From an uncultured Candidatus Saccharibacteria bacterium (lineage in GTDB: Bacteria; Patescibacteriota; Minisyncoccia; Phycocordibacterales; UBA9973): DNA of 59,123 bases. Position 1 is the stretch's first letter. Each line of letters begins with the position of its first letter. Location of the stretch: assembly GCA_964441495.1 (NCBI GenBank), contig CAYTXV010000005.1, positions 1 to 59,123 on the forward strand, written 5' to 3'. Below the pieces are notes generated by a model. The model was not told the DNA's origin, ran no database searches, and saw nothing but the letters and a program-made list of their open reading frames with translations. The translations under genes were made by a program, and so were the position numbers. Shown here in pieces: positions 23,904 through 55,600 of this stretch.

Positions 23904-25196
23904 CTATTTGAGATGCTTGATATACGAAGCGAGCTCACTGATAGGGACGGTTTCTTGGCTACGGGTGTCCATGTTGCGAACGATGACAGTGTCGTGCACT
24001 GCTTCCATCTGACCAAAGATCATCACGTATGGTGTACCGCTTTTCTCAGCAACAGCAAGCTGCGCACCGAGACTATCTTTGGAGAGTGACTGCATGACAG
24101 GGATGTGCGCCTTGCGGAGGATCTCGATGACGTTGAGACTTTTGAGCTTGGCTTCGATACCGATCTGGATGAAGTACACTTTGGGCTTCTTCATGATGCG
24201 TGGCGCGATGTCTTTGAACCATGGTTGCTCGATGATGCGGTCGATACCTATGGAGCCACCCATTGCAGGGATATCCTTTTTGCCACCGAGCTGTTTGCCG
24301 AGGTAGTCGTATCTGCCGCCACCTGCGATCGTCATCTTGCTTCCGTCCTCTGCTGTTTCGATGATCTCAAACACGGTGTGTGTGTAGTACGAGAGACCGC
24401 GTACCAACATCTTGTCTATCTGGTAGGGGATCTCCATCTGATCGAGGTATTCGAGTACTTCTTTGAAGTGCTTTTTGCCTGAAGGAGAGAGATAGCTCAC
24501 CGCATCTGGGGCACCTTGGTTTATTTCGATAGTCTTTGGTTCTTTGGAGTCGAGGATGCGAAGCGGGTTGGTCTTGAGACGTTCACGATCTACTTCTGGC
24601 AAGTCACCGAGGTGCTTTTTGTAGTAGTTGGTCAGATCGCGAATATATGCAGGGCGTGAGTCTTTGTCGCCGATAGAGTTGATCGTGACAAAGAGGTTTT
24701 TGGCGCCAGCTTCTTCGAGGATGGTGTATATAGTTTTGATCACGAGCGCGTCCACGATACTCTTTTCGCTTCCAAGCGCATCCACATCAAACTGATAGAA
24801 CTGTCGATAGCGACCCTTTTGTGGTTTGTCGTGACGAAACACTGGACCTGAGTGATACAGGAGTACTGGTTGTGGCAGGCTCTGCATACCGTGTTCGATA
24901 TATGCACGCATGAGTCCTGCGGTGTGCTCAGGGCGCATCGCAAGGTGATCACCACCCTTTGTTTTGAGCGTGTACATTTCCTTGTCGACGATGTCAGTGC
25001 CGACACCAACTGCGGTGGTAAATGTTTCTTCGTGTTCGAGGACTGGTGTTTCGATCGGTTTGAACCCGTAGTACACAGCGACTTCTTGTGCCTTTTCAAA
25101 AAATCCTTGGAACTTGTAGTAGTCATCCCCGATGATGTCACGCATCCCTTTGGGACTTGCGAGTTCTTTGTTTGATTTTGCTTGTTCTTTACTCAT
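23904..25196 (-). CDS. hisS: Histidine--tRNA ligase
   Basis: The class II aaRS HisRS pattern: PKGMRD, FRHDKPQKGRYRQFYQFD, GGGRYD. Confidence 0.95.
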   Translation of the reverse strand: MSKEQAKSNKELASPKGMRDIIGDDYYKFQGFFEKAQEVAVYYGFKPIETPVLEHEETFTTAVGVGTDIVDKEMYTLKTKGGDHLAMRPEHTAGLMRAYIEHGMQSLPQPVLLYHSGPVFRHDKPQKGRYRQFYQFDVDALGSEKSIVDALVIKTIYTILEEAGAKNLFVTINSIGDKDSRPAYIRDLTNYYKKHLGDLPEVDRERLKTNPLRILDSKEPKTIEINQGAPDAVSYLSPSGKKHFKEVLEYLDQMEIPYQIDKMLVRGLSYYTHTVFEIIETAEDGSKMTIAGGGRYDYLGKQLGGKKDIPAMGGSIGIDRIIEQPWFKDIAPRIMKKPKVYFIQIGIEAKLKSLNVIEILRKAHIPVMQSLSKDSLGAQLAVAEKSGTPYVMIFGQMEAVHDTVIVRNMDTRSQETVPISELASYIKHLK

Positions 25197-25758
25197 AGGT
25201 TTCGTGCGCAGGGAGGTACGCTATCGTTTGTAGGGGAAGGAGTCGCAGGAGTGCTCGACCGCGAATGTTTTTCTCTGGAAGCATACCCCAACTTCGTGAA
25301 TCATAACTTCCACTTCGATTGTCGCCAAGCACAAAGTATTTACCCGGAGGAACTGTCACTGTGAGGATGTCTTTGTGTGTGTGCGTGATGTAGTCTTCTG
25401 TGAGAGTAAATCCTTCAGGGTGCGTAGCGTTTTTGATAGAGACAGTGCTGCCGTCGATAGTGACTGTGTCGCCAGGTACTCCAATGATACGTTTGATGTA
25501 GTACTTGGTTGGTTCTGGAGGTGATTTAAATACCACAACATCTCCTCGTGCTGGTTCTCTGAATCGATACGTGACTTCGTCGATGATGAGATACTGACCG
25601 TTTTTGATATTGGGGTCCATCGAGTTGCCCGAGACGATAAATGGGCGAACAACAAATGCCTGGATGAGGAGCGCAAGTCCAACTGCTGCAGCGATATAGA
25701 GGACATTTTCGATAAATATCCAGAGTCTGTTGGGAGTCTTGACGACGGTAGGTTCCAT
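25189..25758 (-). CDS. lepB: Signal peptidase I
   Basis: GNSMDPN, GDVVVF, YIKRIIGVPGD and GDNRSGSYDSR. It overlaps hisS by 8 nt. Confidence 0.9.
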   Translation of the reverse strand: MEPTVVKTPNRLWIFIENVLYIAAAVGLALLIQAFVVRPFIVSGNSMDPNIKNGQYLIIDEVTYRFREPARGDVVVFKSPPEPTKYYIKRIIGVPGDTVTIDGSTVSIKNATHPEGFTLTEDYITHTHKDILTVTVPPGKYFVLGDNRSGSYDSRSWGMLPEKNIRGRALLRLLPLQTIAYLPAHETYE

Positions 25759-31455: not shown

Positions 31456-31980
31456 ATGTTCATGGATCCTTCAGCGCTCCTTGCGCCGTGCAATCTTCAA
31501 ACAACAGATACTGTTGCTGACTTTGGTGCAGGGACAGGGTTTCTCGCAAAGGCTGCGCTTGCGTATGTTCCCAAAGGAAATGTATTTGCGATTGAGATCA
31601 ATCGCGACATGGTGACCAGACTTACTCGAGAAGCGACTGAAATGCATGCAAACAATCTCCATGCTATCTGGGGAGACATCGAAGTCCCCGGAGGATGCAA
31701 ACTCGCTGATGAATCAGTTGATTTTGTGATACTTTCCAACACACTCTTTTATCTCGAGGACCGAGCAGGTGCGATGACTGAAGCGGTGCGCGTGCTCAAA
31801 CCAGGAGGACGACTCCTTGTGGTTGATTGGACAGAGAGTTTCGGAGGGATGGGTCCACGACCAGACTCTGTACTCACCAAAGCACAAGCAGAAGCGCTCG
31901 CAAGTAGGTTCGGACTCACTGTACTCACCGACACACTGCCTGCAGGTGCGCATCACTATGCTATACTTTTCAGGAAGTAG
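31456..31980 (+). CDS. Class I SAM-dependent methyltransferase
   Basis: Motif I VADFGAGTGFLA and post-I/II LKPGGRLLVVDW. Confidence 0.8.
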   Translation: MFMDPSALLAPCNLQTTDTVADFGAGTGFLAKAALAYVPKGNVFAIEINRDMVTRLTREATEMHANNLHAIWGDIEVPGGCKLADESVDFVILSNTLFYLEDRAGAMTEAVRVLKPGGRLLVVDWTESFGGMGPRPDSVLTKAQAEALASRFGLTVLTDTLPAGAHHYAILFRK

Positions 31981-31992
31981 TCATCTATCGAC

Positions 31993-33300
31993 ATGAAATC
32001 ATCATTTCAAACAATCTTGGTCGTGGTGTTCGCCGCACTCTTTGTCGGTGCGGTTGTTGTGTTCTCGGGGTTGATACCTATTGGGTCAAAGCAGGACGCC
32101 GCAAAACCACAAGGCAATGTTGTGATGTGGGGTACGGTACCACAGACACTTATGCAGGCATACCTCGACACTCTCAACACAGCAAATACTGACTATACGA
32201 TATCCTATGTAGAGCGCAGGAGTGATACCTTCAATCAAGATCTTATCATTGCACTTGCAAACGGTACGCCCCCAGACCTTCTCCTTTTTCCTTCAGAGCA
32301 ATTTACTACGTTCAAAGACAAACTGTACCCGATTCCGTATTCTGTGTATACAGAACGTACGTACCGTGATACCAACATCGATGGTGCACAAATTTTTCTT
32401 TCAAAAAACGGAGTTCTCGCAGCGCCTCTAGTTGTCGACCCGCTTGTTGTGTACTACAACAAAGACCTTTTGGCACAAGCAAAACTTATTCTCCCACCAA
32501 AGACGTGGTCAACACTACAGCAAACTATACCGCTACTTACCAGGCGCGATAGTCGTAACGTGATCACTCAGTCAACTATAGCGCTTGGTACTGGAACAAA
32601 TGTTGATCATGTGAAAGACATCCTTGCAACTTTGTTTTTGCAAACAGGAAATAATATCATTTCTTATGATGGGGTGTCAGGTACGGATACTGTCGTACTC
32701 GGTGCAACACCTGCAAGTGCGCAAAGCGCTCCGACTGCTCAAGCGCTCAACTTTTATACGAGCTTTGCAAATCCAACAAGTGCGAACTATTCGTGGAGCA
32801 CTGCATTTCCTGATAGCCTCAACCAGTTCCTTGCAGGCAAAAGTGCGTTTTATATCGGACGAGCAAGTCAGCTCTTTACGATCCAGTCACAAAATCCAAA
32901 CCTCAACTTTGATGTGATTGAAATGTTTCAGACCGGAGCAACAACACGTCCCGTTACGTTTGGCTCATTTCTTGCTGTCGGAGTCCTTGCCAAGGCGCCA
33001 AACTTTGTGACCGCATATACTGCTGCTGGTGCATTAGGACAACCAGCAAACGTTGATACGCTTTCAAAAATACTTGCTCTGCCACCGGTGCGTCGAGACC
33101 TCCTCTTGGTGCCTCAGTCAAATCCATATGTTGCAACATTTTTCTCAGCAGCACTTTCTTCGTTTGCGTGGCCAGATCCAGACCCAAATCAGACAACGGT
33201 AGTGTTTCGCGACATGGTCACAGGAGTACTTAGTGGCAGGTATGATCCAGACATTGCGATATTTGAAACAGTCAAGAAACTACAATCACTCATTCGATAA
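31993..33300 (+). CDS. Extracellular solute-binding protein (ABC family-1-like), TM-anchored, with no cognate permease nearby
   Basis: N-terminal TM anchor, then GTPPDLLLF and VVYYNKDLLAQAKLILPPKTWSTL, which are typical of sugar SBPs. Confidence 0.65.
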   Translation: MKSSFQTILVVVFAALFVGAVVVFSGLIPIGSKQDAAKPQGNVVMWGTVPQTLMQAYLDTLNTANTDYTISYVERRSDTFNQDLIIALANGTPPDLLLFPSEQFTTFKDKLYPIPYSVYTERTYRDTNIDGAQIFLSKNGVLAAPLVVDPLVVYYNKDLLAQAKLILPPKTWSTLQQTIPLLTRRDSRNVITQSTIALGTGTNVDHVKDILATLFLQTGNNIISYDGVSGTDTVVLGATPASAQSAPTAQALNFYTSFANPTSANYSWSTAFPDSLNQFLAGKSAFYIGRASQLFTIQSQNPNLNFDVIEMFQTGATTRPVTFGSFLAVGVLAKAPNFVTAYTAAGALGQPANVDTLSKILALPPVRRDLLLVPQSNPYVATFFSAALSSFAWPDPDPNQTTVVFRDMVTGVLSGRYDPDIAIFETVKKLQSLIR

Positions 33301-33302
33301 CT

Positions 33303-34334
33303 ATGAAATATTTCACTACACTGTGTCTCATACTTACTGCTTTGTGGACGACGACTGTCTCTGCTGCAGACCTCACCCTTACCGCAAGCGGAGTCACCGG
33401 CAACTCTGTATCTGTCAGCATCAAAAACAATGGACCTGTAGGAGTAAATCCAGATGGTACATACAAGAGTACGTTAACCGGTAGGCTTTATGCGATCAAT
33501 ACAACCTCTGGCAGAGAAGAAAATAGTGTGGATATAGGTGTGGTCGTAGGTGGTGCATCCAAATCTGTAACCATTATCAATCTCAATCCAAATACAGCAT
33601 ACAGTGTTGAGTTTCAAGAAGGAGGAGGCTTTTATAATGCAACACAAGTTATCAAAAAGATAACTATGCGGACAGCGCAGGGAACAGTGATCTGTAGAGC
33701 GCCCAAGATTTTGGTAAATGGTGTATGTGTTGATCCGCCACCAGCTCAGCAGCAAACACAACCTACTCAAACCCCTCCTGTCAATACTCCTGCAATCACT
33801 CCAACAACTCCTGTACAATCAGCATCTACAAGTCCAGATCAGTGTAACGATGGTATCGACAATCAGGTCGGTGACGGCAAGAATTACGGATACGGTATCG
33901 GTGCAGGTGATCGCAAAGCAGATCGGTACGGTGTTGTCGGTATGGAGCCAGATCCGAGCTGTTTTGCAACGTCGGTAAAAGTAGAAAAAGGTGATGATCT
34001 CGCGTACAACTCTGATGGTACTCCAGCAAGTGTTATCCCATGTACAGACAAGTGCACCTTTGGAGATGTGTTTCGACTCCTTAACAACATCATTAGTTTC
34101 TTTTTCAAGGTTATCCTGATACCGTTATTTATCATCATCCTCATCTATGCAGGGGTCAAATACATCACTGCCGAAGGCAATCCTGCCAAGATCGCAAACC
34201 TACGCAAGATACTCTGGAACATCACAAAAGGTATCATCCTCATGCTCTGTTCATGGCTCATCGTACGCACGATCATGACGACGCTTCTGAATGAAGAATT
34301 TAAACAAAGTGGGGTAGAATTCTTGGGAGAGTAA
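33303..34334 (+). CDS. Surface protein: signal peptide + FN3-like domain + Thr/Pro/Gln linker + Cys-containing domain + C-terminal VirB2/TrbC-like pilin module (paralog A)
   Basis: Signal peptide MKYFTTLCLILTALWTTTVSA. The C-terminus reads IPLFIIILIYAGVKYITAEGNPAKIANLRKILWNITKGIILMLCSWLIV. Confidence 0.7.
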   Translation: MKYFTTLCLILTALWTTTVSAADLTLTASGVTGNSVSVSIKNNGPVGVNPDGTYKSTLTGRLYAINTTSGREENSVDIGVVVGGASKSVTIINLNPNTAYSVEFQEGGGFYNATQVIKKITMRTAQGTVICRAPKILVNGVCVDPPPAQQQTQPTQTPPVNTPAITPTTPVQSASTSPDQCNDGIDNQVGDGKNYGYGIGAGDRKADRYGVVGMEPDPSCFATSVKVEKGDDLAYNSDGTPASVIPCTDKCTFGDVFRLLNNIISFFFKVILIPLFIIILIYAGVKYITAEGNPAKIANLRKILWNITKGIILMLCSWLIVRTIMTTLLNEEFKQSGVEFLGE

Positions 34335-34352
34335 CGCTATACTACTGTGAGT

Positions 34353-35477
34353 ATGAAACCATATCTCATCTCTGTGCTTACAATACTTCTTGTGGTGTTG
34401 TCTCCGCAGCGCGCGCTTGCAAACCACTTCAGTTGTACTGCAACAACAACCGAAACAACTGCCACACTCACAGTTCGCACGACGCAACCTGGTATCTTTG
34501 CGACACAATACGTCAAGATAGTCGATGCTGCAAACTCGACAATGGACGGTACGATAGCCCCGTTTGAATCAATCGATCAAACAGCTGATACAAGTGTGTA
34601 TACATACCGATACCTTGATCCTGGCAAAACATACAAAGCAGTCGTATACGACAGAGCAGGCTTATTTGTCGAAGATATCAAAGGGTGTACCTTTACTACC
34701 AAGGGCGGAACTACTACCCCCACACAAACACCAACTACTCCAAATCTCCCGTTTCGTATCAGTATCCAGGACAAGACTGCAACAAGTGCAAAGATAAACG
34801 CACAATCACTCCTGCCGTTTTCGACACTAGGAGAATTCCAGCTTCGTAAATATGTCGGACAAACAGCAAGTGCGCAGACACAGGTCTCCTACTGTACGAG
34901 CAGTACGTTTGCATCTGCAGAAACAGTGCAGTGTATTGTGACTGGGCTTGCACCAGCTACACGATACCTTGTCATTGTGATTGCAAATGGACCAGATAAC
35001 AGACAGTACAGTGCGCCGATGGAGTTCACAACTCTTGCACAAACCAGTACCACTCCTGTTGGTACTGGTACTAACACAGGTAGTCCATCTCCAGGGAGTG
35101 GCAACACAGGTAGTCCATCTCCAGGACAAGATAGTGGTATCCCTATGACGACGACCGGATCTGGTTCTGTCGCAACGACAGCAGGCATCCAGGCAGGAGG
35201 ACTGTTTGAAGTCAAACTCAAAAACCCCCTCAAAGTAAATAACATTTCAGATGCAATCAAGTTTTTCTTGGACGTCCTTATCAAGATCGCGATTCCATTT
35301 ATTGTGATATTCTTTATTTGGTCAGGACTCAAGTTTATCCTTGCGCAAGGTAACCCTACCGAAATCACCAAAGCAAAAAAGATGTTTTGGTATACGATCA
35401 TCGGGACACTCCTCATCCTAGGCGCATGGACGATCACCAATGCGGTTATCGGCACTATCAACTCAATCATCAACTAA
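34353..35477 (+). CDS. Surface protein: signal peptide + two FN3-like domains + Gly/Ser/Pro linker + VirB2/TrbC-like pilin module (paralog B)
   Basis: The C-terminus reads IPFIVIFFIWSGLKFILAQGNPTEITKAKKMFWYTIIGTLLILGAWTI. The track ORF starts at GTG 34347; I prefer ATG 34353, which has TATACT 9 nt upstream. Confidence 0.7.
   Translation: MKPYLISVLTILLVVLSPQRALANHFSCTATTTETTATLTVRTTQPGIFATQYVKIVDAANSTMDGTIAPFESIDQTADTSVYTYRYLDPGKTYKAVVYDRAGLFVEDIKGCTFTTKGGTTTPTQTPTTPNLPFRISIQDKTATSAKINAQSLLPFSTLGEFQLRKYVGQTASAQTQVSYCTSSTFASAETVQCIVTGLAPATRYLVIVIANGPDNRQYSAPMEFTTLAQTSTTPVGTGTNTGSPSPGSGNTGSPSPGQDSGIPMTTTGSGSVATTAGIQAGGLFEVKLKNPLKVNNISDAIKFFLDVLIKIAIPFIVIFFIWSGLKFILAQGNPTEITKAKKMFWYTIIGTLLILGAWTITNAVIGTINSIIN
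35073..35125 (+). repeat. Direct tandem duplication (23-nt perfect core, 30-nt period) inside the paralog B linker
   Basis: aacacaggtagtccatctccagg occurs at 35073-35095 and again at 35103-35125, encoding NTGSPSPG twice. Confidence 0.85.
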
Positions 35478-35478
35478 C

Positions 35479-36144
35479 ATGAACAAACTATCTATAACCA
35501 TTGCGCTCGCACTCCTCTTTTTGATAGCGCCAACCATACATGCAGAAATGATCAAAGAGGGGGATGGTCCAATCCTCGTCGGTGAACAGACGACAATCCC
35601 TGTTTCGACACAAAGTACTCCCACTACAGTACAATTTGACCCTGTGCCAACGATCAACGGTACACCTATAGATATGCAAGTACCTATTGATGATGCTCCG
35701 AGTATGCCAGCCGGTACTCCTGGAGGAGGAGCGCTTCCAACAGGTGCGCTCAACGCCAATAGTCCACAACCACCAGCTGCAAGTAGTACCCCACAGTCAG
35801 GCTCTTCTGAGCTATCTCAGTGTAGCAATCTCAAGATCGTTTCATTGCTCGACTTTTTGATCTGGATCAAATGCATTATTGTGGTTGCGATCATTCCACT
35901 CATCTTTGCACTTGCGCTTATGTTCTTCCTCTGGGGAGTGATGAAGTTCATCATGGCAAATGATTCGACCAAACGAGAAGAGGGGCGCAAGTTTATCCTC
36001 GGCGGACTCATCGGGCTCTTTGTGATGACGAGTCTGTGGGGTATCGTTAGGATACTCGGTACCACGTTGGGACTCGATAGCGCTGTCCCACTTCTCCAGA
36101 CCGAGTGCTTGACCCAAAACGGTTGTACTCCTCCTACCAAGTAG
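35479..36144 (+). CDS. Secreted Pro/Thr-rich protein with a VirB2/TrbC-like pilin module (paralog C)
   Basis: Signal peptide MNKLSITIALALLFLIAPTIHA. The C-terminus reads IPLIFALALMFFLWGVMKFIMANDSTKREEGRKFILGGLIGLFVMTSLWGIV. Confidence 0.65.
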   Translation: MNKLSITIALALLFLIAPTIHAEMIKEGDGPILVGEQTTIPVSTQSTPTTVQFDPVPTINGTPIDMQVPIDDAPSMPAGTPGGGALPTGALNANSPQPPAASSTPQSGSSELSQCSNLKIVSLLDFLIWIKCIIVVAIIPLIFALALMFFLWGVMKFIMANDSTKREEGRKFILGGLIGLFVMTSLWGIVRILGTTLGLDSAVPLLQTECLTQNGCTPPTK

Positions 36145-36199
36145 TGCTATACTTACGACATACCTTATTAATGGTAATAGTTATACAAATAATTTATTT

Positions 36200-36613
36200 A
36201 TGAAAAAATCAGTTCTCGCATCGCTCGGTACGGCACTCATGGCTCCTGCTGTAGCGCTTGCACAGTGGACCGTAACGAGTGGTACACCAAACACAGGATA
36301 CGTTGACACCTGGCTTACAAAAGCAATCGGATGGTTGTCGCAATCGATCACCATCATCATGGTGCTCATGACTGTATGGTTCCTTATCAGTGTGCTTCGA
36401 TATGTCATGGAGAAAGATCCAGGCAAACTCAAAGACAAGCGCAAGACTATGATGTCTGGCCTCCTCGGACTCTTTATCGCAGTGTCAGTATGGGGTATCA
36501 TCCAGATCGCAGGTACTATCTTTGGTACGCGAAATGCAGTAACTCCAGATCTCACCTGTCCTCCAGGAACCGTTGTTGATACAACTGGTAACTGTGGTAT
36601 CCCTGTGCGATAA
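36200..36613 (+). CDS. VirB2/TrbC-like pilin (paralog D, canonical size 137 aa)
   Basis: Signal peptide MKKSVLASLGTALMAPAVALA, then two TM helices flanking the basic loop LRYVMEKDPGKLKDKRKTMMSG. Confidence 0.65.
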   Translation: MKKSVLASLGTALMAPAVALAQWTVTSGTPNTGYVDTWLTKAIGWLSQSITIIMVLMTVWFLISVLRYVMEKDPGKLKDKRKTMMSGLLGLFIAVSVWGIIQIAGTIFGTRNAVTPDLTCPPGTVVDTTGNCGIPVR

Positions 36614-36619
36614 CCATCT

Positions 36620-36955
36620 ATGTCTTGGATCGCATATGCTGACTCTGTAGATACTCTTGTGTTCAAGATAAACGCAAAGGTTATCAACCCCGCGATTGAG
36701 TTTGCGTTCATCATCGCACTTGTTGTATTCCTTTTTGGTGTCATGGAGTACATCCGTGGTGCTGCAAACGAAGACAAGCGCAAAAAGGGGAGAGAGCACA
36801 TGCTCTGGGGTGTCGTCGGGTTTGTCATCATGCTCGGTGTGTTTGGGATCATCACATTTCTCACGCGCACATTTGGTATCCAGGGTGCAACCTTCACCAA
36901 GGATCAACAAACGTTTACTCCGCCACCTATCCAAGACCTCAAATTTCCGCAATAA
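36620..36955 (+). CDS. VirB2/TrbC-like pilin (paralog E, 111 aa)
   Basis: A two-helix module, FIIALVVFLFGVMEYIRGAANEDKRKKGREHMLWGVVGFVIMLGVFGII. Confidence 0.6.
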   Translation: MSWIAYADSVDTLVFKINAKVINPAIEFAFIIALVVFLFGVMEYIRGAANEDKRKKGREHMLWGVVGFVIMLGVFGIITFLTRTFGIQGATFTKDQQTFTPPPIQDLKFPQ

Positions 36956-36990
36956 AAAAAGCCGCACTCGTTGTGCGGCTTTTGCGTTTT
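36955..36990. terminator. Bidirectional terminator closing the pilin array and the convergent SPFH operon
   Basis: A-run, then gccgcac / tcgtt / gtgcggc, then ttttgcgtttt. Confidence 0.8.
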
Positions 36991-37011: not shown

Positions 37012-37584
37012 CTACTTGTTGCTTGACTTGTTGGTGAAGTCGATGATCGTGCTCGGTGTGAGCAGACGAACCGCATACTCACCAACATCGGCTTTGCCGA
37101 TGAAGTCGTAGTATTCACCATCTACCCTGGTAGCAGACTTGCGTACTGCCCATTGTTTCCAGTGAGCTTTGGTACCTTGTATCTCTATTTCGATACGTTC
37201 ATCGAGTCTCGTTGGCTCAAAATATACCGTGTCGGCAAAAGAGAACCGATACCATTTACCCTGCTCAAACACTTGTTCTCCATAGGAGATACGTAGTCCT
37301 TCAGGGATAGAAACAGTCGGTACTGGCTGGGGAGGTGGAGGGGTGTACGATGCTGTTGTTACGTATGAAGGTGTTGTTTGAGTCGGCGCTTCATCATGGG
37401 ATGAACTTTGTACCAATTTAAAAACATACACAAACATAACAACAAGTACTACTCCGACTGCATAGCGTACCCACACTGGTGTTTTACTAAAAATACTTAA
37501 AAATGTTTTTTTAGCGACACCTTTCTTGTCTTTGTCGATTGCTATTAAGCAACCAAGAAAAATCAAAACTAATAAGATTTTCAT
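37012..37584 (-). CDS. Membrane-anchored beta-rich protein, translationally coupled to the SPFH gene (NfeD-analogous position)
   Basis: Its start overlaps the upstream stop (ATGA). It has TM segments, a Pro/Thr linker and a C-terminal beta-rich domain. I recognise no family. Confidence 0.5.
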   Translation of the reverse strand: MKILLVLIFLGCLIAIDKDKKGVAKKTFLSIFSKTPVWVRYAVGVVLVVMFVYVFKLVQSSSHDEAPTQTTPSYVTTASYTPPPPQPVPTVSIPEGLRISYGEQVFEQGKWYRFSFADTVYFEPTRLDERIEIEIQGTKAHWKQWAVRKSATRVDGEYYDFIGKADVGEYAVRLLTPSTIIDFTNKSSNK

Positions 37585-38777
37585 TTGCTACCTCCTTTTT
37601 TTTCGGAATTTTTACCTTGGTTGATTTCATGGGCAAGGTCAAGACCAACAGCAGTCTGAACAAGATTCGCAACATCGATTGAGGGAGACATGTTCTGCCC
37701 GCTGTTACTTTCTACAAGCACTCTTAGGTTTTGCATGTTTTTTGACCGTTCGATAATCGTTACATCCCGCACTTTTTTCTTTGCTATAGTTGCATCTCTA
37801 TCCGCATTGATCAGCTCAATAGCTCCTTCAATACGAGGTCTCATTTCTGCTTTTAGCGCAGTACCCTTGTTTTGCGATGTTTCCAATCTGACTTCTGATA
37901 CAGCTCTCTCGGTGAGTGCTTTAACATACTCGATTGACTCCTCGCTTATTTGATAGTCGAGAAGTGGTATGTTTATCAGAAACACGCCAAGACGTTTAAC
38001 AATGAGAATTTCGTAGTTGATCCTTTCCAGGAAAGTAACCTTTGCTTTTCTTCTACTATTAGAATCTTTAAAAAAGAATTCAGGTTGCTGGTTTTGTCCA
38101 ACAATTCGAGTAGGATTTTGAGGCTCAGTGTTTTTTACCAGGTAGGTTTCAAGTTTCTCACCGCGAATTTTGGGTAAGTCGGCATAGGTTAGAGTCGAAA
38201 CTATTTCGCTGACAGCAGACTTTATAGTTGCTTCAACGCTCGGATGCCAGTATGCAGAGTTGCGAAACTCTGCTTCGTACGGCGAGTCCATTTTTACAGT
38301 ACCTTGAAGAAACAAGTCAACCGTAACGTTTTCAGGGTTTTTTTCTTCGGTTTTCTTTTTCTTTTTTTCACCAGTTTCGATACTAAACACATCGAACCGG
38401 TAATCGTGCTGATCGCGATGATGATTTGTTTTTTCATAGCGATAATAAGAAACCTCAACATCTTTTTCAGGGTCACCTGATATGATGTTTTTGTCTCCAG
38501 CGGTGACATCACTGCTTTTTTTAGGTTCTTTCCATGGGAATCGGTAATAACTTATCCACTGAAATCCAAACCATATCCAACCGAGTGTTGCATGATTTGG
38601 TTCTGTAGCAGGGATAAGTCGCTTGGTCGTTTTGTCGTATATGCGATCAGCTGTTCCACTAATCGTACGAGAAAAACGACCTAGTGTTATAACGTTTTTA
38701 TGCTTACCCTCTTCTCTCACTACAATACATTTGTAGATCCAGAAAAAAAAGAGAACAGCAAAGATAACTTCTGCCAT
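37581..38777 (-). CDS. SPFH/band-7-like membrane protein (divergent, 398 aa)
   Basis: N-terminal TM helix, then IVVREEGKHKNVITLGRFSRT, NVTVDLFLQGTVKMDSP and GVFLINIPLLDYQISEE, followed by a C-terminal coiled coil. This is the SPFH pattern with a Lys-rich insert. Confidence 0.5.
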   Translation of the reverse strand: MAEVIFAVLFFFWIYKCIVVREEGKHKNVITLGRFSRTISGTADRIYDKTTKRLIPATEPNHATLGWIWFGFQWISYYRFPWKEPKKSSDVTAGDKNIISGDPEKDVEVSYYRYEKTNHHRDQHDYRFDVFSIETGEKKKKKTEEKNPENVTVDLFLQGTVKMDSPYEAEFRNSAYWHPSVEATIKSAVSEIVSTLTYADLPKIRGEKLETYLVKNTEPQNPTRIVGQNQQPEFFFKDSNSRRKAKVTFLERINYEILIVKRLGVFLINIPLLDYQISEESIEYVKALTERAVSEVRLETSQNKGTALKAEMRPRIEGAIELINADRDATIAKKKVRDVTIIERSKNMQNLRVLVESNSGQNMSPSIDVANLVQTAVGLDLAHEINQGKNSEKKGGSK

Positions 38778-38823
38778 AATGTGTGTTTTATTTGTGAAAG
38801 AATGTTGTTTAAATATTTTTATT

Positions 38824-38852
38824 ATTATAACAAAAAATACTTATTTTGTCAA
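38824..38852 (-). promoter_or_regulatory. Perfect consensus promoter TTGACA-17 nt-TATAAT (TGt extended) for the SPFH operon
   Basis: Plus-strand attata at 38824-38829 and tgtcaa at 38847-38852. Confidence 0.6.
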
Positions 38853-38880
38853 ATAAAAAACCACCTCTTCACAGAGGTGG
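38853..38880 (-). terminator. Terminator of the lipoprotein gene 38908..39492
   Basis: ccacctct / tcac / agaggtgg, with a U-run on the minus strand. Confidence 0.75.
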
Positions 38881-38907
38881 TGTAAGGTTTTCGTTTTGTT
38901 TTTACAA

Positions 38908-39492
38908 CTATAACCGGATTATCGGTTGTCCGGGGCCTGCCAGTACTGTGGCTCGATAAAACCAACCCGGAAACCACTGAATAGTGGTCCATGTTGCAGG
39001 GTTTAAGGCCGGGGACCATTGCCCTGTTATAGGCTCAATGTCTAGAGAGGCCTTGAGTTGCCATGTCCCTACCCAAACCCATTCAGCGCGAACAACATAC
39101 ACAGTGCCATGAGAGGCACTCATTCCTTGGTTGAAAGTAAACCCTTCAGCTATCGGTTGCCCTGTAACAGGGTCATAGCTTACCTGGTTAGGCCGGCATG
39201 GTGTGTTTACCATGATGCCGGTACCATTTTGGCCGGCAGAGACACGCACCCCGTTTTGGAACAAGGGCTGGATCAGTGTTCTGACCCATGTTTGTTGCCC
39301 GTTAGGCATGACAACCAGTGCCTGTGTAAGGTCCTGGTTATACTGTACGAGCTGTGGCAGTATCGTTTGCTGTGGTGCCGCCAGGTTACCCGGGTTATTC
39401 CTGATTGTGTCCAAGACTTGCTGCTTGGAGCAGGATATCAGTGTACTGGATATGAAAATCAAAACGATTGCGATTGAAAAGAACTTTTTCAT
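38908..39492 (-). CDS. Putative lipoprotein, Gln/Asn/Trp-rich (194 aa)
   Basis: The N-terminus MKKFFSIAIVLIFISSTLISCSKQQ (lipobox LISC). I recognise no family. Confidence 0.5.
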   Translation of the reverse strand: MKKFFSIAIVLIFISSTLISCSKQQVLDTIRNNPGNLAAPQQTILPQLVQYNQDLTQALVVMPNGQQTWVRTLIQPLFQNGVRVSAGQNGTGIMVNTPCRPNQVSYDPVTGQPIAEGFTFNQGMSASHGTVYVVRAEWVWVGTWQLKASLDIEPITGQWSPALNPATWTTIQWFPGWFYRATVLAGPGQPIIRL

Positions 39493-47155: not shown

Positions 47156-50100
47156 ATGATTTTCTTGAAGAAAAAGAAACTATATTTTTTTGCGGGATTT
47201 ATTTGTGCTTTGGTTTTAATCTCTATTTCAAAAGCTCATGCATATACATATGATTTTGAAACAGATACCGTAGGGCAAACACCGTCAGGGGTTACGGTTA
47301 CCGCAGGAACTTTTACTGTCTCAAATGACGCGACATCAAACAATAGTAACGCAATGCGTTCGACTTCGACTACTTCGACTCCTGTACTTACTTTTAACAA
47401 TTTTTCCTCAGCAAGTAATTATTCTGTTACATGGAAAGATATGTATTCAAACAACACAGGGCGTTACGGATTTGTTTTGAGGGCACAAAGCGGTACTACT
47501 TCATCGATTGCGGGTATGCAGCAAGGGTATATATTTCGGGTTGATCACGAAGGTACAAGTACTCCCAATACTGTTCGAATATATAAAAATGGAGCTTCTG
47601 CTTCAACACAACTAACCTCAGTCAGTCTGACAAGTGCTACAAATCGATGGTTTAAGGCAATTGTGTATGATACAGAACTCAAGTTGTATTATTCAAACAA
47701 CGGAGTTGATTTTACACTAATCACAAGTACTTCAGACAACTCGTATACTACCGGAGGAGTCCAGTACGCATCAGGTTTTAGTGGTAGTAGTAACGGTGGT
47801 CGATTTACATACATTGATAATATTACTCAGGAAGATATCGAACATCAAGATCCACCCATCATATCAAATATAGTAGTCTCTGGGACAGAAACTACTGGGG
47901 CAACAATCACGTGGACTACTGATGAACTTTCCACATCTCAAGTGGTGTATGGTACAACCTCGGCATATGGATCAACTACCGTCCTTGATACAACACTGAC
48001 AACTTCACATTCAGTTACTTTGTCCGGATTGACAACCAATACGGTCTATCACTTTGCGGTCAAGAGTGCTGATGAGTTAAGCAATGAATCCACTTCTCGT
48101 GACGGAACGTTTAACACGGGTACGCCGGTCAACAATATCGCTGTTACTACTCCGAGTGCATACGAAGTATTTCAGCGTAATGGTTCAAATCAGGCCAATA
48201 TCACTATTGTTGGTACATATACAGGTACTCCAACTGCTATAGAGGCGAGTTGGAATGGAGGTGCGTATACAACAATTGAATCAAATCCAACAGGGGGTTC
48301 ATTTTCAGGCACGCTTTCTAATCAGACGGGGGGTCAGGGGACGCTTACTGTTAGATTTGTAAATAGTACAGGTACCTCAGCGAGTATTTCATATGTTGGT
48401 GTCGGCGATGTATATGTTATAGCTGGACAAAGTAATGCAAGTGGTAAGGGGACAAATAATCAATCTTATTCACATCCGACACTCAAGGCAGGGTTGTTTG
48501 GTAATGATGATGTATGGAAAAACCTTACCGATCCTGTTGACTCAAACTCTGGACAGGTTGATTCTGTAAGTAGTGATACAGGAGCCGGAGGTTCTGTATG
48601 GCCACTTCTTGCCACATATATACTCAATGATCAGGGTGTACCTGTTGCATTTATACCCGCACCAAAAGGGGGAACATCGATTACTCAATGGGATCAGGGA
48701 TTATTAGCATCGACATTGTACGGGTCAATGTATCGACGCATCAACGAAGTTACCGGTGGTATAAAAGCAGTGCTTTATTTCCAAGGAGAAACCGACGCAA
48801 GCAATTCAATGAGTACTGCAACCTACCTTTCATATCTCAATGCGCTTGCCAACAATATCAACAGTGACTTCGGTGTAAAAACAGTAGTTGGTATGATAGG
48901 TAACGCTTCATATACCGCTACACAGCTCGACAATATTCGTCTTGCACAAATCTCTGGGTGGAACACAAATGCAAATATAATTCCAGGGCCAAATGTTGTA
49001 GACGTAAATCTTGCTGATGAGAGTGGGGATAATCTGCACTTCAAGAGTGATGCAGATCTTGCAGTTTTTGCTGCTCGATGGTGGGCGGCTCTCAAGGCGG
49101 GGTTTTATAGTGGGACGGATGATGGACGCGGCCCACGTATCAGTGGTGCAACATACAATACTGCAAAAACAGAACTTACGCTTACTTTTACTGATACATC
49201 TGGTCTTGCAAATACTGCCGTGGGTCCAGAAGTGTTCACTGTCAAAGATAATGGAACCCCTGTTAGTGTATCTACAGTTACACGACTTAACTCATCACAA
49301 CTAAAACTTACACTTGCATCTGCGGCAACTGGTACTATTACTGTTACGCTTGCCTCTGGTATAACAGGATACAGTGGAGCAATGCCTACCGATGCGAGTG
49401 CGTATACAATCCCAGCAGAGCCGTTTGTTGATTACGCAACAACACTTTATGATCCAGACATCACCGCCCCAACCGTTTCGATCACCGCCCCAACTGATGG
49501 CGCAACTGTGAGTGGTGCTTCAGTCACCGTTTCTGCAAATGCCTCAGACAATAGTGGTGTTGTGGGAGTACAGTTTAAACTCGATGGTGCAAACCTTGGA
49601 TCTGAAGATACTACAGCACCGTATTCGATAGTGTGGGATACGACAGTTGCGACAAACGGTACTCATACCATTACTGCAGTAGCTCGAGACGCTGCAGCAA
49701 ACACTACTACAGCAACCACAATTACGGTGACGGTTGATAATCGTGCACCTATAGTATCAGTCGCTGATTCGTCTGTCGCACTTGCTGCGGGGACCACAGG
49801 TACATCACTTTCAGTTACAACAGACGAATCAAGTACTTGTAAATATGCTACCGTAGCAGGTACCGCATACTCTTCTATGACAGAAACATTTAGTACAATA
49901 AATGGACTTGCACATACTGCTCCAGTGACTGGTTTTACGAACGGTACCACCTATACATACTATATTCGTTGTGTAGACGCTGTTGGTAATGTCACAACAG
50001 AAGATACAACTGTTTCTTTTGTAGTAGCAAACCCTACACCAGAACCAGAACCTGAAAATTCTGAACCAGAACAAGCATCATCTACTGTGTACGGTTCAAT

Positions 50101-50449
50101 CTCTACGGTACGCCGCGCAGTTTCGACAGATACTCGTGCCTGTACACCAACCACGAACTTTAGCCCAGTTACGGGAGCAAAATGTCCAAAACATATAGTT
50201 ACGAACAATAATTTTTTAACAAACCTGCGGATAGGTATGAACCATCCTGATGTCAAAAGATTACAACAATACCTCAACACACACGGTTTTATAGTAGCAA
50301 CTAGTGGTCCCGGATCTCTTGGTAAAGAAACAACTTATTTTGGTTCAGCAACAAGAACCGCCATTGTTCGATTGCAAAAAACATATAATATCTCGCCAGT
50401 AAGTGGTATATTCGGTCCCAAAACCCGTGCGTTACTACATAATTTTTAA
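47156..50449 (+). CDS. 1097-aa multidomain surface protein: LamG/ConA-like + FN3 + SASA-type (sialate O-acetylesterase/CE6-like) esterase + Ig-like domains + PG_binding_1
   Basis: A signal/anchor segment, then FN3 (ATITWTTDELSTSQVVYG...YHFAV) and SASA motifs (VIAGQSNASGKG ... GDNLHF). An Ig-like domain follows (APTVSITAPTDGATVSG...TAPYSIVWDT). The C-terminus is a peptidoglycan-binding repeat (GMNHPDVKRLQQYLN...GIFGPKTRALL). Confidence 0.8.
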   Translation: MIFLKKKKLYFFAGFICALVLISISKAHAYTYDFETDTVGQTPSGVTVTAGTFTVSNDATSNNSNAMRSTSTTSTPVLTFNNFSSASNYSVTWKDMYSNNTGRYGFVLRAQSGTTSSIAGMQQGYIFRVDHEGTSTPNTVRIYKNGASASTQLTSVSLTSATNRWFKAIVYDTELKLYYSNNGVDFTLITSTSDNSYTTGGVQYASGFSGSSNGGRFTYIDNITQEDIEHQDPPIISNIVVSGTETTGATITWTTDELSTSQVVYGTTSAYGSTTVLDTTLTTSHSVTLSGLTTNTVYHFAVKSADELSNESTSRDGTFNTGTPVNNIAVTTPSAYEVFQRNGSNQANITIVGTYTGTPTAIEASWNGGAYTTIESNPTGGSFSGTLSNQTGGQGTLTVRFVNSTGTSASISYVGVGDVYVIAGQSNASGKGTNNQSYSHPTLKAGLFGNDDVWKNLTDPVDSNSGQVDSVSSDTGAGGSVWPLLATYILNDQGVPVAFIPAPKGGTSITQWDQGLLASTLYGSMYRRINEVTGGIKAVLYFQGETDASNSMSTATYLSYLNALANNINSDFGVKTVVGMIGNASYTATQLDNIRLAQISGWNTNANIIPGPNVVDVNLADESGDNLHFKSDADLAVFAARWWAALKAGFYSGTDDGRGPRISGATYNTAKTELTLTFTDTSGLANTAVGPEVFTVKDNGTPVSVSTVTRLNSSQLKLTLASAATGTITVTLASGITGYSGAMPTDASAYTIPAEPFVDYATTLYDPDITAPTVSITAPTDGATVSGASVTVSANASDNSGVVGVQFKLDGANLGSEDTTAPYSIVWDTTVATNGTHTITAVARDAAANTTTATTITVTVDNRAPIVSVADSSVALAAGTTGTSLSVTTDESSTCKYATVAGTAYSSMTETFSTINGLAHTAPVTGFTNGTTYTYYIRCVDAVGNVTTEDTTVSFVVANPTPEPEPENSEPEQASSTVYGSISTVRRAVSTDTRACTPTTNFSPVTGAKCPKHIVTNNNFLTNLRIGMNHPDVKRLQQYLNTHGFIVATSGPGSLGKETTYFGSATRTAIVRLQKTYNISPVSGIFGPKTRALLHNF

Positions 50450-53738: not shown

Positions 53739-53770
53739 AAGCACCCATAAATGGGTGCTTTATCTTTTCT
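53739..53770 (+). terminator. Terminator hairpin
   Basis: aagcaccca / taaa / tgggtgctt followed by tatcttttct. Confidence 0.6.
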
Positions 53771-53798
53771 TGAGCTCGGTATAGTACACTACAGCAAC

Positions 53799-55466
53799 AT
53801 GAGACAAGCTCAGGCACTCGACATCCTCAAAACAGGCGCGCACGTCTTTCTCACTGGAGAGCCAGGTGCTGGCAAGACACATACCGTCAATGCATATGTG
53901 GCGTACCTCCGTGAGCACGGGATCGAGCCTGCCATCACTGCCTCTACTGGTATCGCCGCGACACATATCCATGGACAGACCATCCACTCGTGGAGCGGGA
54001 TAGGGATCCGTCGGTTTCTTTCTCCGTACGATCTCGAGCAGCTCGCAACGACAGAATATCTTGTCAAACGCATTAGGCGTACAACGACACTGATCATCGA
54101 TGAGGTTTCGATGATCGATGCAACGACACTTGATATGGTCGATGTGGTATGTCAAACGATTCGTGGTTCCACGGAACCGTTTGGTGGGATACAGGTTGTA
54201 CTTGTTGGTGACTTTTTCCAGCTTCCACCTGTTGCGCGTTCTGGTGACGAGGGTAGATTTGCATTTACATCACAGGCGTGGCGTGCGATGCGTCCAGTTG
54301 TCTGTTATCTCACTGAGCAGCATCGTCAACAAGATGAACGGTTTCTCTCGGTACTTGGAGCTATTCGCACAGATACATATGATGAAGCGCATCATGACCA
54401 TCTCGCCAAGTGTTTTATTTCTTCTGATACTAACGAGTCACTCACGATCACGCGTTTGTTCCCACACAATGTTGATGTTGACGAGATCAACAATCGTGAA
54501 CTTGCGAGGCTCGACGGTGTCCCGCAAACATACACGATGACAAGCAAGGGAAGAGAGTCACTTGTCGCTGGACTCAAAAAGGGTTGCCTTTCTCCAGAAG
54601 TACTCGTGCTCAAAGAGGGTGCGATTGTCATGTGTACCAAAAACAATCCACAAAAAGGCTATGTCAACGGCACGCTTGGGACAGTACTCGGATTTGAAGC
54701 CGGGACCAAGTATCCGATCATTGAAACCAGGGATGGACAGCGGATCACCATCGAAGCGGTTGACTGGGTGCTCGAAGAGGACGGTAAACAAAAAGCGTCT
54801 ATTACGCAGATACCACTGCGACTTGCATGGGCGATCACTATCCACAAGAGTCAAGGGATGAGTCTCGATGCTGCGGTGATGGACCTCAGAGAAGTGTTTG
54901 AGTACGGGCAAGGGTATGTTGCACTCTCTCGAGTTCGTTCACTCGAGGGACTCAAACTCCTCGGTATCAACAGGCGAGCAGTTGAGGTGCACCCACAGAT
55001 TCGCGCCCAAGATAGTGCCTTTGTACAACAGTCAGATATAGCAGAGGTTTCATTTGGCGACATCCCCAAAGACGAGCTTCGATCGATGCATGAGCGATTC
55101 ATCCTTGCTTCAGGTGGTGTGGTGACCAAGGCAAAAAAGCAAGTCAAACTAGATACACTTGAACACACGCTCATGCTTGTTCTCCAAGCAAAACCGATTG
55201 CAGTTATTGCCAGAGAGCGTAAACTGACACAAGCAACAGTTTATACGCATATCGAAAAGCTAATTGCACAAGGGCGACTTGCCTACGAAGACATCGCGTA
55301 TCTCATCACAGACAAGATTCGTAAAGGGTATCGCGAGATCAAGCGAGCATTTCAAACAGCAGATACATCCAAGCTTGCACCAATCCATGAACTATACAAG
55401 GGTAGATATACGTTTGACGAGTTACGGATTGCGCGGATGATGATGGTACTTGAGACAAACGAATAA
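53799..55466 (+). CDS. PIF1/RecD-family (TraA-like) ATP-dependent DNA helicase with a C-terminal HTH
   Basis: Walker A GEPGAGKTH, motif II IIDEVSMID, VGDFFQLPPV, AITIHKSQGMS and YVALSRV. The C-terminal HTH-like segment reads ARERKLTQATVYTHIEKLI. The start is the internal ATG of ORF 53751..55466. Confidence 0.85.
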   Translation: MRQAQALDILKTGAHVFLTGEPGAGKTHTVNAYVAYLREHGIEPAITASTGIAATHIHGQTIHSWSGIGIRRFLSPYDLEQLATTEYLVKRIRRTTTLIIDEVSMIDATTLDMVDVVCQTIRGSTEPFGGIQVVLVGDFFQLPPVARSGDEGRFAFTSQAWRAMRPVVCYLTEQHRQQDERFLSVLGAIRTDTYDEAHHDHLAKCFISSDTNESLTITRLFPHNVDVDEINNRELARLDGVPQTYTMTSKGRESLVAGLKKGCLSPEVLVLKEGAIVMCTKNNPQKGYVNGTLGTVLGFEAGTKYPIIETRDGQRITIEAVDWVLEEDGKQKASITQIPLRLAWAITIHKSQGMSLDAAVMDLREVFEYGQGYVALSRVRSLEGLKLLGINRRAVEVHPQIRAQDSAFVQQSDIAEVSFGDIPKDELRSMHERFILASGGVVTKAKKQVKLDTLEHTLMLVLQAKPIAVIARERKLTQATVYTHIEKLIAQGRLAYEDIAYLITDKIRKGYREIKRAFQTADTSKLAPIHELYKGRYTFDELRIARMMMVLETNE

Positions 55467-55484
55467 TCGATTTATACTAACGAC

Positions 55485-55547
55485 ATGGCAAAAGGAAATA
55501 ATTCACGCAAAAAAGAAACCAAAAAACCAAAGAAGGTAGCAAAATAA
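55485..55547 (+). CDS. Unannotated lysine-rich 20-aa micro-protein (MAKGNNSRKKETKKPKKVAK)
   Basis: I read it by hand. A TATACT box at 55473-55478 lies 6 nt upstream of the ATG, and a 14-bp perfect hairpin follows at 55553-55584. Confidence 0.35.
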   Translation: MAKGNNSRKKETKKPKKVAK

Positions 55548-55552
55548 TGTGT

Positions 55553-55584
55553 GCAAATCCCACCACATCCGTGGTGGGATTTGC
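55553..55584 (+). terminator. 14-bp perfect hairpin (terminator-like, no long T-run)
   Basis: gcaaatcccaccac / atcc / gtggtgggatttgc. The 3' arm overlaps the TGC of the next -10 box. Confidence 0.55.
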
Positions 55585-55590
55585 TATACT
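55582..55590 (+). promoter_or_regulatory. Extended -10 box TGCTATACT, 10 nt from ATG 55601
   Basis: Read directly from the sequence. Confidence 0.55.
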
Positions 55591-55600
55591 ATAACTATCT

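Follow-up and report, generated by a model that had tools for sequence, protein, structure and literature searches.

What is built by five adjacent genes whose products all end in the same two-helix module, and does a known pilus assembly system have a part in it? The question is raised by a 59,123-nucleotide stretch from an uncultured Candidatus Saccharibacteria bacterium (GenBank contig CAYTXV010000005.1, here called the window), in which five consecutive plus-strand genes, A to E, occupy positions 33303 to 36955. Judged by their profile matches, the five products are members of the Pfam family PF18895 (T4SS_pilin) and of the VirB2-like pilin arrays of Patescibacteria, and the array comprises five ancient orthologous types, a fixed set whose order is kept in about 45 species. 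The interpretation that we favor, and regard as probable, is that A to E, from an ultrasmall Patescibacteria bacterium probably of the class Paceibacteria, represent five distinct VirB2-like (PF18895) pilins, the subunits of a decorated filament assembled by a type IV secretion system (T4SS).

Gene A (343 aa) spans 33303-34334, B (374 aa) 34353-35477, C (221 aa) 35479-36144, D (137 aa) 36200-36613 and E (111 aa) 36620-36955; the intervals between them measure 18, 1, 55 and 6 nt, just as a first-pass annotation made from the sequence letters had described. The C-terminus of each product consists of two long, strongly hydrophobic helices with a short turn between them, the turn being followed by four to seven Lys/Arg residues. 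In AlphaFold2 models of B and E, the two subunits that were modelled, the helices have 33-45 residues and the turns four, with predicted local distance difference test (pLDDT) scores of 85-96. PF18895 is the best Pfam family for each of the five (E-values from 5e-9 to 2e-4). Set against its curated gathering cutoff of 26.6 bits, B (36.5 bits) and A (29.5 bits) score higher and E (26.7 bits) lies at or just above it, while D (23.3 bits, E-value 6.7e-5) and C (21.9 bits, E-value 1.9e-4) fall below, the family still being their top match. A second profile, NF045849 (the Mbov_0395 pilin-like conjugal transfer protein of a Mycoplasma integrative and conjugative element), gave 35.9 bits with E, against a cutoff of 40, and 24.8 bits with D. 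Pairwise, the modules of the window array are 15-31% identical. Position-specific profiles for A to E, built from 44 genomes, match one another with hhalign probabilities of 91-99.7% (99-99.7% among C, D and E), and invariant polar, Gly and Pro positions were found across 38-44 homologs. Together, the common Pfam family and the mutual profile matches argue that the likeness of the modules is not due to chance. The helix-loop-helix module that the first-pass annotation saw at all five C-termini is thereby borne out, and the 'T4SS pilin' family of the candidate phyla radiation (CPR) to which it pointed is PF18895 itself. Within the CPR, the closest loci with this family come from metagenome-assembled genomes (MAGs) labelled Candidatus Paceibacterota, Nomurabacteria, Minisyncoccia and Saccharibacteria. 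A Patescibacteria VirB2 array is recognized by at least two low-identity PF18895/VirB2-like genes in tandem or with one gene between them, and here there are five adjacent ones; an iterated hidden Markov model (HMM) search found no further module-bearing open reading frame (ORF) in the window. The prepilin-peptidase/N-methylation motif of type IV pili (T4P) and type II secretion systems (PF07963/TIGR02532) had no match in A to E.

Are the five genes equivalent copies or different parts? All homologs of A, B and E belong to PF18895 and come from Paceibacterota-type MAGs. The gene order in 55 species-level loci is (hisS-lepB-pth-S1-MBL)-gyrA-methyltransferase-SBP-[array]-...-infB, where SBP denotes a solute-binding protein, and exactly five module genes were found in 44 non-redundant loci, so that the conservation in relatives that had been set as a check on the first-pass annotation was indeed observed. 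Modules at the same position of different genomes have mean identities, per position, of 47-64%. For different positions of the same genome the mean is 22% (maximum 53%), and the nearest neighbor of a module occupies the same position in 216 out of 220 cases. Compared with two syntenic relatives, whole-protein identity climbs along the array, from 63% and 63% for A, through 67% and 46% for B, 71% and 52% for C and 82% and 68% for D, to 89% and 75% for E, the most conserved subunit; GyrA, compared with a single relative, is 92% identical. The modules are 70-89% identical to those of the two syntenic relatives, versus 32-63% for the ectodomains. Lengths are near constant for D (median 133 aa) and E (median 112 aa) and range from 113 to 572 aa for A and B, and fibronectin type III (FN3), PKD and Cys-rich ectodomains have been swapped onto the same module between lineages. 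By these patterns of identity and length, the ectodomains are accessory and exchangeable and the module is the constrained part.

The subunits differ considerably in their architecture. Sec-type signal peptides, which the first-pass annotation had placed on A, B and C, are found there and on D as well; E lacks one, and no upstream extension of its ORF is possible. In A, the signal peptide (aa 1-21) is followed by a putative beta-rich domain (aa 22-135, 33366-33707), a Pro/Thr/Gln linker (aa 136-174), a conserved Cys-rich domain (aa 175-255, 33825-34067) and the pilin module (aa 257-343, 34071-34331). The beta-rich domain, of about 114 residues, lacks a Pfam match and resembles the first FN3 domain of B weakly (hhalign probability 15%). 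The Cys-rich domain has about 80 residues with the pattern CNDGIDNQ...CTDKC, and the cysteines of A at 131, 142, 181, 220, 247, 251 and 316 are kept in six to seven of seven orthologs. Homologs of A have about 170 C-terminal residues in common, i.e. the Cys-rich domain and the module, and a variable N-terminal domain that is swapped for PKD or FN3 domains or is absent. We presume a resemblance of the Cys-rich segment to Asp-rich metal- or calcium-binding repeats. Segments of this type, CNDGIDN(x)3DG, recur on both A-type and B-type modules (e.g. in the homolog P0041) and have no family match.

B carries a signal peptide (aa 1-23), two FN3 domains (aa 26-115, 34428-34697, and aa 134-226, 34752-35030), a disordered Thr/Ser/Pro/Gly linker of about 64 residues (aa 227-290, 35031-35222) and the pilin module (aa 291-374, 35223-35474). 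Its AlphaFold2 model, from a 38-sequence alignment, has a mean pLDDT of 79.6, with module helices at 298-330 and 335-373, and contains two beta-sandwiches (26-115 and 134-226), each with a pLDDT above 90. The top Foldseek matches of these sandwiches in the PDB were tandem FNIII domains of sDscam, Tie2 and fibronectin (E-values from 6e-8 to 1e-6, probability 1.0), and on the strength of the model and these matches we take the two FN3 domains of B as proven. The Pfam fn3 profile gave 22 bits, below its 25-bit cutoff. The module of B is 57-81% identical in proteins with unrelated ectodomains, and an exact-sequence look-up of B gave no other record. In C, the signal peptide (aa 1-22) precedes a Pro/Thr/Ser/Gly-rich low-complexity segment of about 90 residues (aa 23-114, 35545-35820), which from its composition is most likely not a folded domain, and the pilin module with a C-terminal CX5C tail (aa 115-221, 35821-36141). 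The C ortholog of locus L005, on a 633-kb JGI contig, has an extra N-terminal domain, FN3-like by sequence, that is absent from the C of the window. D consists of a signal peptide (aa 1-21), a short N-terminal segment, the pilin module and a tail with the Cys pair C120/C132, and E of hardly anything other than the helical hairpin and a 25-residue tail, with modelled helices at residues 2-46 and 51-84 (core pLDDT 87-96). With FN3 domains shown for B alone, the signal in A being weak and C having low-complexity sequence only, the description of three subunits as fused to FN3-like ectodomains was overstated.

How much of this is new to the family? A 2025 survey of 3,035 Patescibacteria genomes, made with PF18895, PF04956 and CONJScan profiles, reported VirB2-like pilins in 1,948 VirB4-containing assemblies, near virB4 in 1,135 and not near it in 813, as well as 441 arrays, each with 2-11 pilin genes that are about 25% identical to one another; the arrays were read as a possible aid in adapting to different hosts (PMC12102498). 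Southlakia epibionticum ML1 has six PF18895 pilins (SEML1_0014-0019, ~126-185 aa) within a T4SS cluster, and this array is essential (PMC10633639, PMC12857230). Both the tandem paralogs and the absence of machinery nearby, two of the three points that the first-pass annotation had considered unusual, are therefore documented features of the family. The locus is a real feature of a known family, which the first-pass annotation named rightly while overrating its strangeness. What lies beyond the literature that we searched is the five-type orthologous set, the gyrA-methyltransferase-SBP context, the apparently split operon and the modular ectodomains, including tandem FN3 domains on a VirB2-like module.

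Does membership in PF18895 lead on to the classical VirB2/TrbC pilins? In VirB2, a short charged loop on the cytoplasmic side connects two transmembrane (TM) helices, and in the pilus this loop faces the lumen while the termini are outside; Gram-positive T4SSs also have a VirB2-like pilin, PrgF (bioRxiv 10.64898/2025.12.18.695078). The hairpin geometry is present in A to E. The small size holds for D and E only, which at 137 and 111 aa are of pilin size as had been claimed for them, against 343, 374 and 221 aa for A, B and C. Relatives with A/B-type modules of 57-67% identity reach PF04956 (TrbC/VirB2) with 27.9-30.9 bits, the cutoff being 27.9 (P0051 29.6, P0057 30.9, P0060 30.9, P0177 27.9). 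Precomputed matches to PF04956 were present in four of 63 B-type, three of 66 A-type and none of 80 E-type homologs, and two Southlakia pilins also match it.

Several results weigh against a VirB2-type filament, among them that none of A to E matched PF04956 at an E-value of 1 or lower. In a Foldseek search of the PDB with the E model, the best E-value was 1.2 and the top 50 matches included no T4SS pilin; a two-helix hairpin is too simple a shape for such a search to discriminate. HMM searches of PDB sequences, with the five-module profile and with a 38-sequence profile of the B family, found no pilin and returned noise, i.e. TM segments of G-protein-coupled receptors (GPCRs) and low-complexity matches. 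By neither route did we obtain the significant structural match to VirB2/TrbC that the first-pass annotation had named as its own test. In hhalign, the position profiles aligned with single VirB2 or TraA chains at noise level, as gauged by shuffled controls and an AtpE control sequence; the one exception was a weak alignment of the A-type profile with VirB2 (probability 16%, P 0.0016, 60 columns; P at least 0.09 in the controls). No T4SS core gene was found in the 59-kb contig or within 10 kb on either side of the array in the 55 related loci. The scan for T4SS families covered essentially all window ORFs of at least 80 aa, and the VirB1, VirB3/PrgI, VirB4, VirB6 and VirB8 families had no member among the scanned ORFs, small ones included. 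The link to a T4SS in this lineage is consequently drawn solely from family membership. To our knowledge, no characterized VirB2 pilin bears an ectodomain of 250-290 residues, and we know of no filament seen for the PF18895 family. The VirB2/TrbC identity assigned by the first-pass annotation is thus supported only in part and indirectly, through PF18895 and through the relatives of A and B that reach PF04956, and not by any direct match of a window protein. By analogy with better known pilins, we infer that A to E would form a pilus.

Transcription of the array appears to be divided. The window contains 17 copies of the motif TGNTATAMT, with 2.7 expected; most of them closely precede start codons, and by this distribution the motif looks like the organism's main promoter signal. 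Two promoter-like extended -10 elements on the plus strand (TGCTATACT in both cases) bear on the array: a putative P1 for SBP-A-B-C at 31959-31967, 26 nt before the SBP start, and a putative P2 for D-E at 36145-36153, 1 nt past the C stop and 46 nt before the D start. In related loci the motif is found upstream of D, between C and D, in 40 of 44 and upstream of SBP in 32 of 41, compared to none of 44 for either A or E, four of 44 for C and seven of 44 for B (background 2.6% per comparable stretch). The median C-D gap across these loci is 76 nt, and 98% of them have an SBP-A gap of no more than 60 nt. The motif distribution and the two gap sizes suggest two transcription units, SBP-A-B-C and D-E. 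Just downstream of P2, at about 36160-36180, lies a conserved inverted repeat, TACC-N8-GGTA in the window and (T)ACCTG-N8-14-CAGGT(A) in relatives (loci L002-L053). RNAalifold predicts no structure in the D-E leader, and the repeat shows no compensatory changes, so that an RNA hairpin and a DNA operator are indistinguishable; an RNA element is not claimed here. At the far end, a bidirectional intrinsic-terminator-like hairpin, assigned to neither strand, was located at 36957-36983 by a terminator scan and direct reading of the sequence, close to the 36955-36990 proposed for a terminator shared by the array. It is G+C-rich, with an 11-bp stem and A/T runs on its flanks, and is common to E and a convergent gene at 37012-37584.

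In the filament that we favor, A to D would be exported via Sec and cleaved by signal peptidase (lepB is in the window, at 25189-25758), and E would insert into the membrane without a leader. By the positive-inside rule, the basic turn of all five would be cytoplasmic and their topology N-out/C-out. A T4SS core (VirB6/VirB4/PrgI/TrsD) encoded elsewhere in the genome would then extract and stack the hairpins, by analogy with VirB2/TraA, PrgF of pCF10 and the Southlakia array, giving a filament with the basic turns around its lumen and with both termini pointing outward. D and E are the likely core subunits, because they are cargo-less, most conserved and separately promoted. A to C would join the filament via the same module. 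Tethered by long flexible linkers, their ectodomains would be presented on its surface to the host and, both termini being outward, would decorate the exterior together with the Cys-loop tails of C and D, which would likewise contact the host cell. A role as a surface filament or in adhesion is reasonable as a hypothesis, and the anchored SBP might serve, at the contact site, to bind glycans of the host or to capture solutes. A more far-reaching version, which we think rather unlikely as a whole, has an obligate five-type heteropolymeric VirB2-type filament or conduit with D and E as the core, A-C displaying FN3, Cys-rich and Pro/Thr-rich regions, and co-expression with the anchored SBP. With the locus permanently uncoupled from virB4, assembly may even be T4SS-independent, or the role may lie in host attachment and nutrient capture instead of DNA transfer. 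All conjugative pili of solved structure are, as far as we know, homopolymers of one small pilin. If true, a VirB2 polymer of five obligate components, decorated with adhesins, would be architecturally new.

The extreme form of such an architecture would be single chains with many modules. An exhaustive search with the five-module profile over 1.84 billion representatives gave 47,559 clusters at an E-value of 1e-3 or lower and 3,940 at 1e-10 or lower. Among the top 150 matches, 116 have between two and 17 modules per polypeptide, with a repeat period of about 90-110 aa and internal copies that are 22-37% identical. Examples (from the set P0210-P0359) are P0216 (1775 aa, 17 modules), P0215 (1147 aa, 11 modules) and P0210 (555 aa, six modules). 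These 'poly-pilins', many of which occur in public metagenomes, are topologically consistent, with all linkers outside and all turns inside, and could be fused arrays or polyprotein precursors. One three-module relative is named 'pilin [Ca. Paceibacterota]' at NCBI, and one multi-module cluster includes an Altiarchaeales archaeon.

Which other explanations fit the array? The main rival is that the module is a membrane-resident, oligomerizing hairpin, forming either a hetero-oligomer or a plain anchor of surface domains in the cytoplasmic membrane of a monoderm, independently of any T4SS. Throughout the clade, the array never lies beside T4SS genes and sits instead in a housekeeping neighborhood of gyrA, methyltransferase, SBP and infB, apparently co-transcribed with the membrane-anchored SBP, all of which such a complex would account for, as it would for the lack of a specific pilin match in the Foldseek and PDB searches. 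Single chains of 2-17 modules also fit polytopic membrane proteins and hardly fit helical pilus subunits. A plain anchor, however, is not expected to be more conserved than its cargo, nor should the cargo-less D and E then be the most conserved subunits, and five fixed types are needless for anchoring. The predicted helices of 33-45 residues are far longer than a bilayer span and, with their 4-residue turn, suit pilin geometry better than a simple membrane anchor. Members of the family in Southlakia lie inside a T4SS cluster and are essential, and relatives of the window proteins reach the TrbC/VirB2 cutoff. On balance we consider the membrane-resident complex possible and the less probable of the two by a good distance.

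Alternatively, the genes might be paralogs that can replace one another and so vary a single major pilin in its antigenicity or host range, as proposed for the VirB2 arrays of Bartonella and Anaplasma and suggested for those of Patescibacteria (PMC12102498). Such a pool would explain the low identity within the array (mean 22%, compared to 25% in other arrays) and the A and B ectodomains that vary between species in type and in length (113-572 aa). It is very unlikely here, given stable ordered orthologs in about 45 species, with 216 of 220 nearest neighbors at the same position and no sign of recent duplication or conversion. The types furthermore differ in signal peptide, tails and ectodomains, the array is apparently split into two transcription units, and in Southlakia each of SEML1_0017-0019 is essential according to a Tn-seq table, the whole array being reported as essential. 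What about mere compositional likeness of unrelated two-TM proteins, such as holin-like or other generic hairpins? The five-module profile does match GPCR and other TM segments in the PDB weakly, and E has many weak matches to TM families in Pfam. This explanation is effectively refuted, and its probability negligible, by the assignment of all five to one curated family, the grouping into orthologs, the hhalign probabilities of 91-99.7%, the invariant polar, Gly and Pro positions and the synteny. A holin was rejected as well, as a PHROGs scan gave no holin match and only a tail protein and a family of unknown function at E-values of about 5e-3.

The probable decorated filament, five different VirB2-like subunits brought together by a T4SS, can be set beside several known systems. 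Closest are the Southlakia array and the Patescibacteria VirB2 arrays in general, which share PF18895, tandem same-strand divergent paralogs (~25% identity), a monoderm CPR host genome and a frequent distance from virB4. Unlike the window array, that of Southlakia lies in a T4SS cluster and has short members, whereas here the locus is of the gyrA-methyltransferase-SBP type, no T4SS core gene is in the contig and three subunits have N-terminal regions of 90-270 residues. The published survey stressed Microgenomatia and Saccharimonadia and variable paralogs, in contrast to the five fixed orthologous types found here (PMC12102498). VirB2, TrbC and TraA pilins (T-pilus 8CUE/8EXH; F-type 5LER/5LEG) likewise have two long hydrophobic helices with a short turn near basic residues, a signal-peptide leader (A-D here) and an N-out/C-out topology that places the termini on the filament surface. 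They differ in that no window protein gives a significant direct sequence or Foldseek match to them, and in that the known pili are homopolymers of one small pilin, compared to five types, three with ectodomains. Modular type IV pilins, such as PilB and PilC of Streptococcus sanguinis, also fuse a polymerizing pilin module to a folded adhesin-type domain along the filament, with what we take to be an unrelated fold and assembly, a class III signal peptide and the T4P machine. PrgF(B2) of pCF10, the VirB2-like proteins of the MPF-FATA class and Mbov_0395 (NF045849) are small two-TM pilin-like proteins of a monoderm T4SS class related to the VirB4 of Patescibacteria; unlike A to E they are single-copy, adjoin virB6 and lack ectodomains, and the NF045849 score of E is below cutoff. 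The virB2 arrays of Bartonella Trw (trwL) and Anaplasma represent tandem VirB2-like amplification in host-associated bacteria too, although theirs are recent variable duplications and the five types here are ancient and in fixed order (as cited in PMC12102498). Pam pili consist of surface filament proteins that are specific to the CPR, have Ig-like folds and are implicated in host contact, but they assemble through donor-strand exchange between Ig-like pilins, with chaperone-usher-like factors, and have no two-TM hairpin module (bioRxiv 10.64898/2026.03.03.709456); a Pam pilus was rejected for A to E on account of this different architecture.

Patescibacteria constitute a large share of bacterial diversity, their cultivated members live attached to host cells, and the T4SS with its pilin array is indispensable to the only species tested. 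For the large Paceibacteria/Nomurabacteria-like clade, the array is a conserved five-part kit of differing architectures and not a pool of varying copies, and the locus names candidate determinants of host recognition. Searches limited by size (e.g. filters of 50-150 aa) will miss many VirB2-like pilins.

The surroundings of the array are those of an ordinary chromosome, with secA, dnaE, pyk, hisS, lepB, pth, gyrA, infB, clpB, gltX and tRNAs; an Rfam scan of the window returned tRNAs only, and a tblastn search of PLSDB with E gave no match. The last gene of the window was found on a single other contig, of 1.9 kb, and the window is apparently the entire 59,123-bp contig. Directly upstream of A lies the SBP gene (31993-33300, plus strand), encoding 435 aa with an N-terminal TM anchor and no lipobox Cys (SBP_bac_8 1e-20 and SBP_bac_1 3e-15 in Pfam), with its stop codon 2 nt ahead of the A start. 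No ABC permease or ATPase partner was found in the window, in agreement with its earlier description as an orphan, and in nearly all related loci the array follows it directly. On the other side, the 'SPFH operon' of the first-pass annotation found no support in Pfam or NCBIfam. The three convergent genes there (37012-39492, minus strand) keep their position in relatives, have no Pfam or NCBIfam family, and two of them are only 24-42% identical. In distant lineages, the large ORFs beside the arrays encode P-type ATPases, RecG, tRNA synthetases, ribonucleotide reductase and GH38, with no VirB4 or other T4SS gene.

The earlier statement that no T4SS machinery lies nearby held for VirB3, VirB4, VirB6 and VirB8 and has to be amended for a lone VirD4/TrwB-like P-loop ATPase at 55601-57526 (plus strand), 18.6 kb downstream of the array. 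It matches TrwB_AAD_bind (5.5e-11) and T4SS-DNA_transf (3.4e-8) in Pfam and scores 44.7 bits with the VirD4-like CD1115 profile of NCBIfam, far below the 250-bit cutoff. Orphan homologs of the type IV coupling protein (T4CP) are common in Patescibacteria, with 5,713 in 2,918 genomes (~2 per genome), 148 of them near virB4 (PMC12102498). The ATPase of the window is probably not functionally tied to the array. It has its own promoter motif at 55582 and belongs to a cluster at 53751-58824, preceded there by a PIF1/RecD2-like helicase with HTH_40 and followed by a protein with lamin-tail (LTD) and PKD domains; the cluster may be related to DNA uptake or transfer, separately from the array.

Elsewhere on the contig, a type IV pilin/pseudopilin-like gene at 11881-12765 (minus strand, 294 aa), with an N-terminal methylation motif, represents a second and unrelated pilin type and is adjoined by a gene for a VanY-type D-Ala-D-Ala carboxypeptidase (10973-11878, minus strand). 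Lastly, a protein of 1097 aa (47156-50449, plus strand) combines an FN3-like N-terminal region (matching Pur_ac_phosph_N), an SASA-type sialate/carbohydrate O-acetylesterase, a Big_7 Ig domain and a peptidoglycan-binding domain, and is a candidate for an enzyme acting on the cell-wall glycans of the host.

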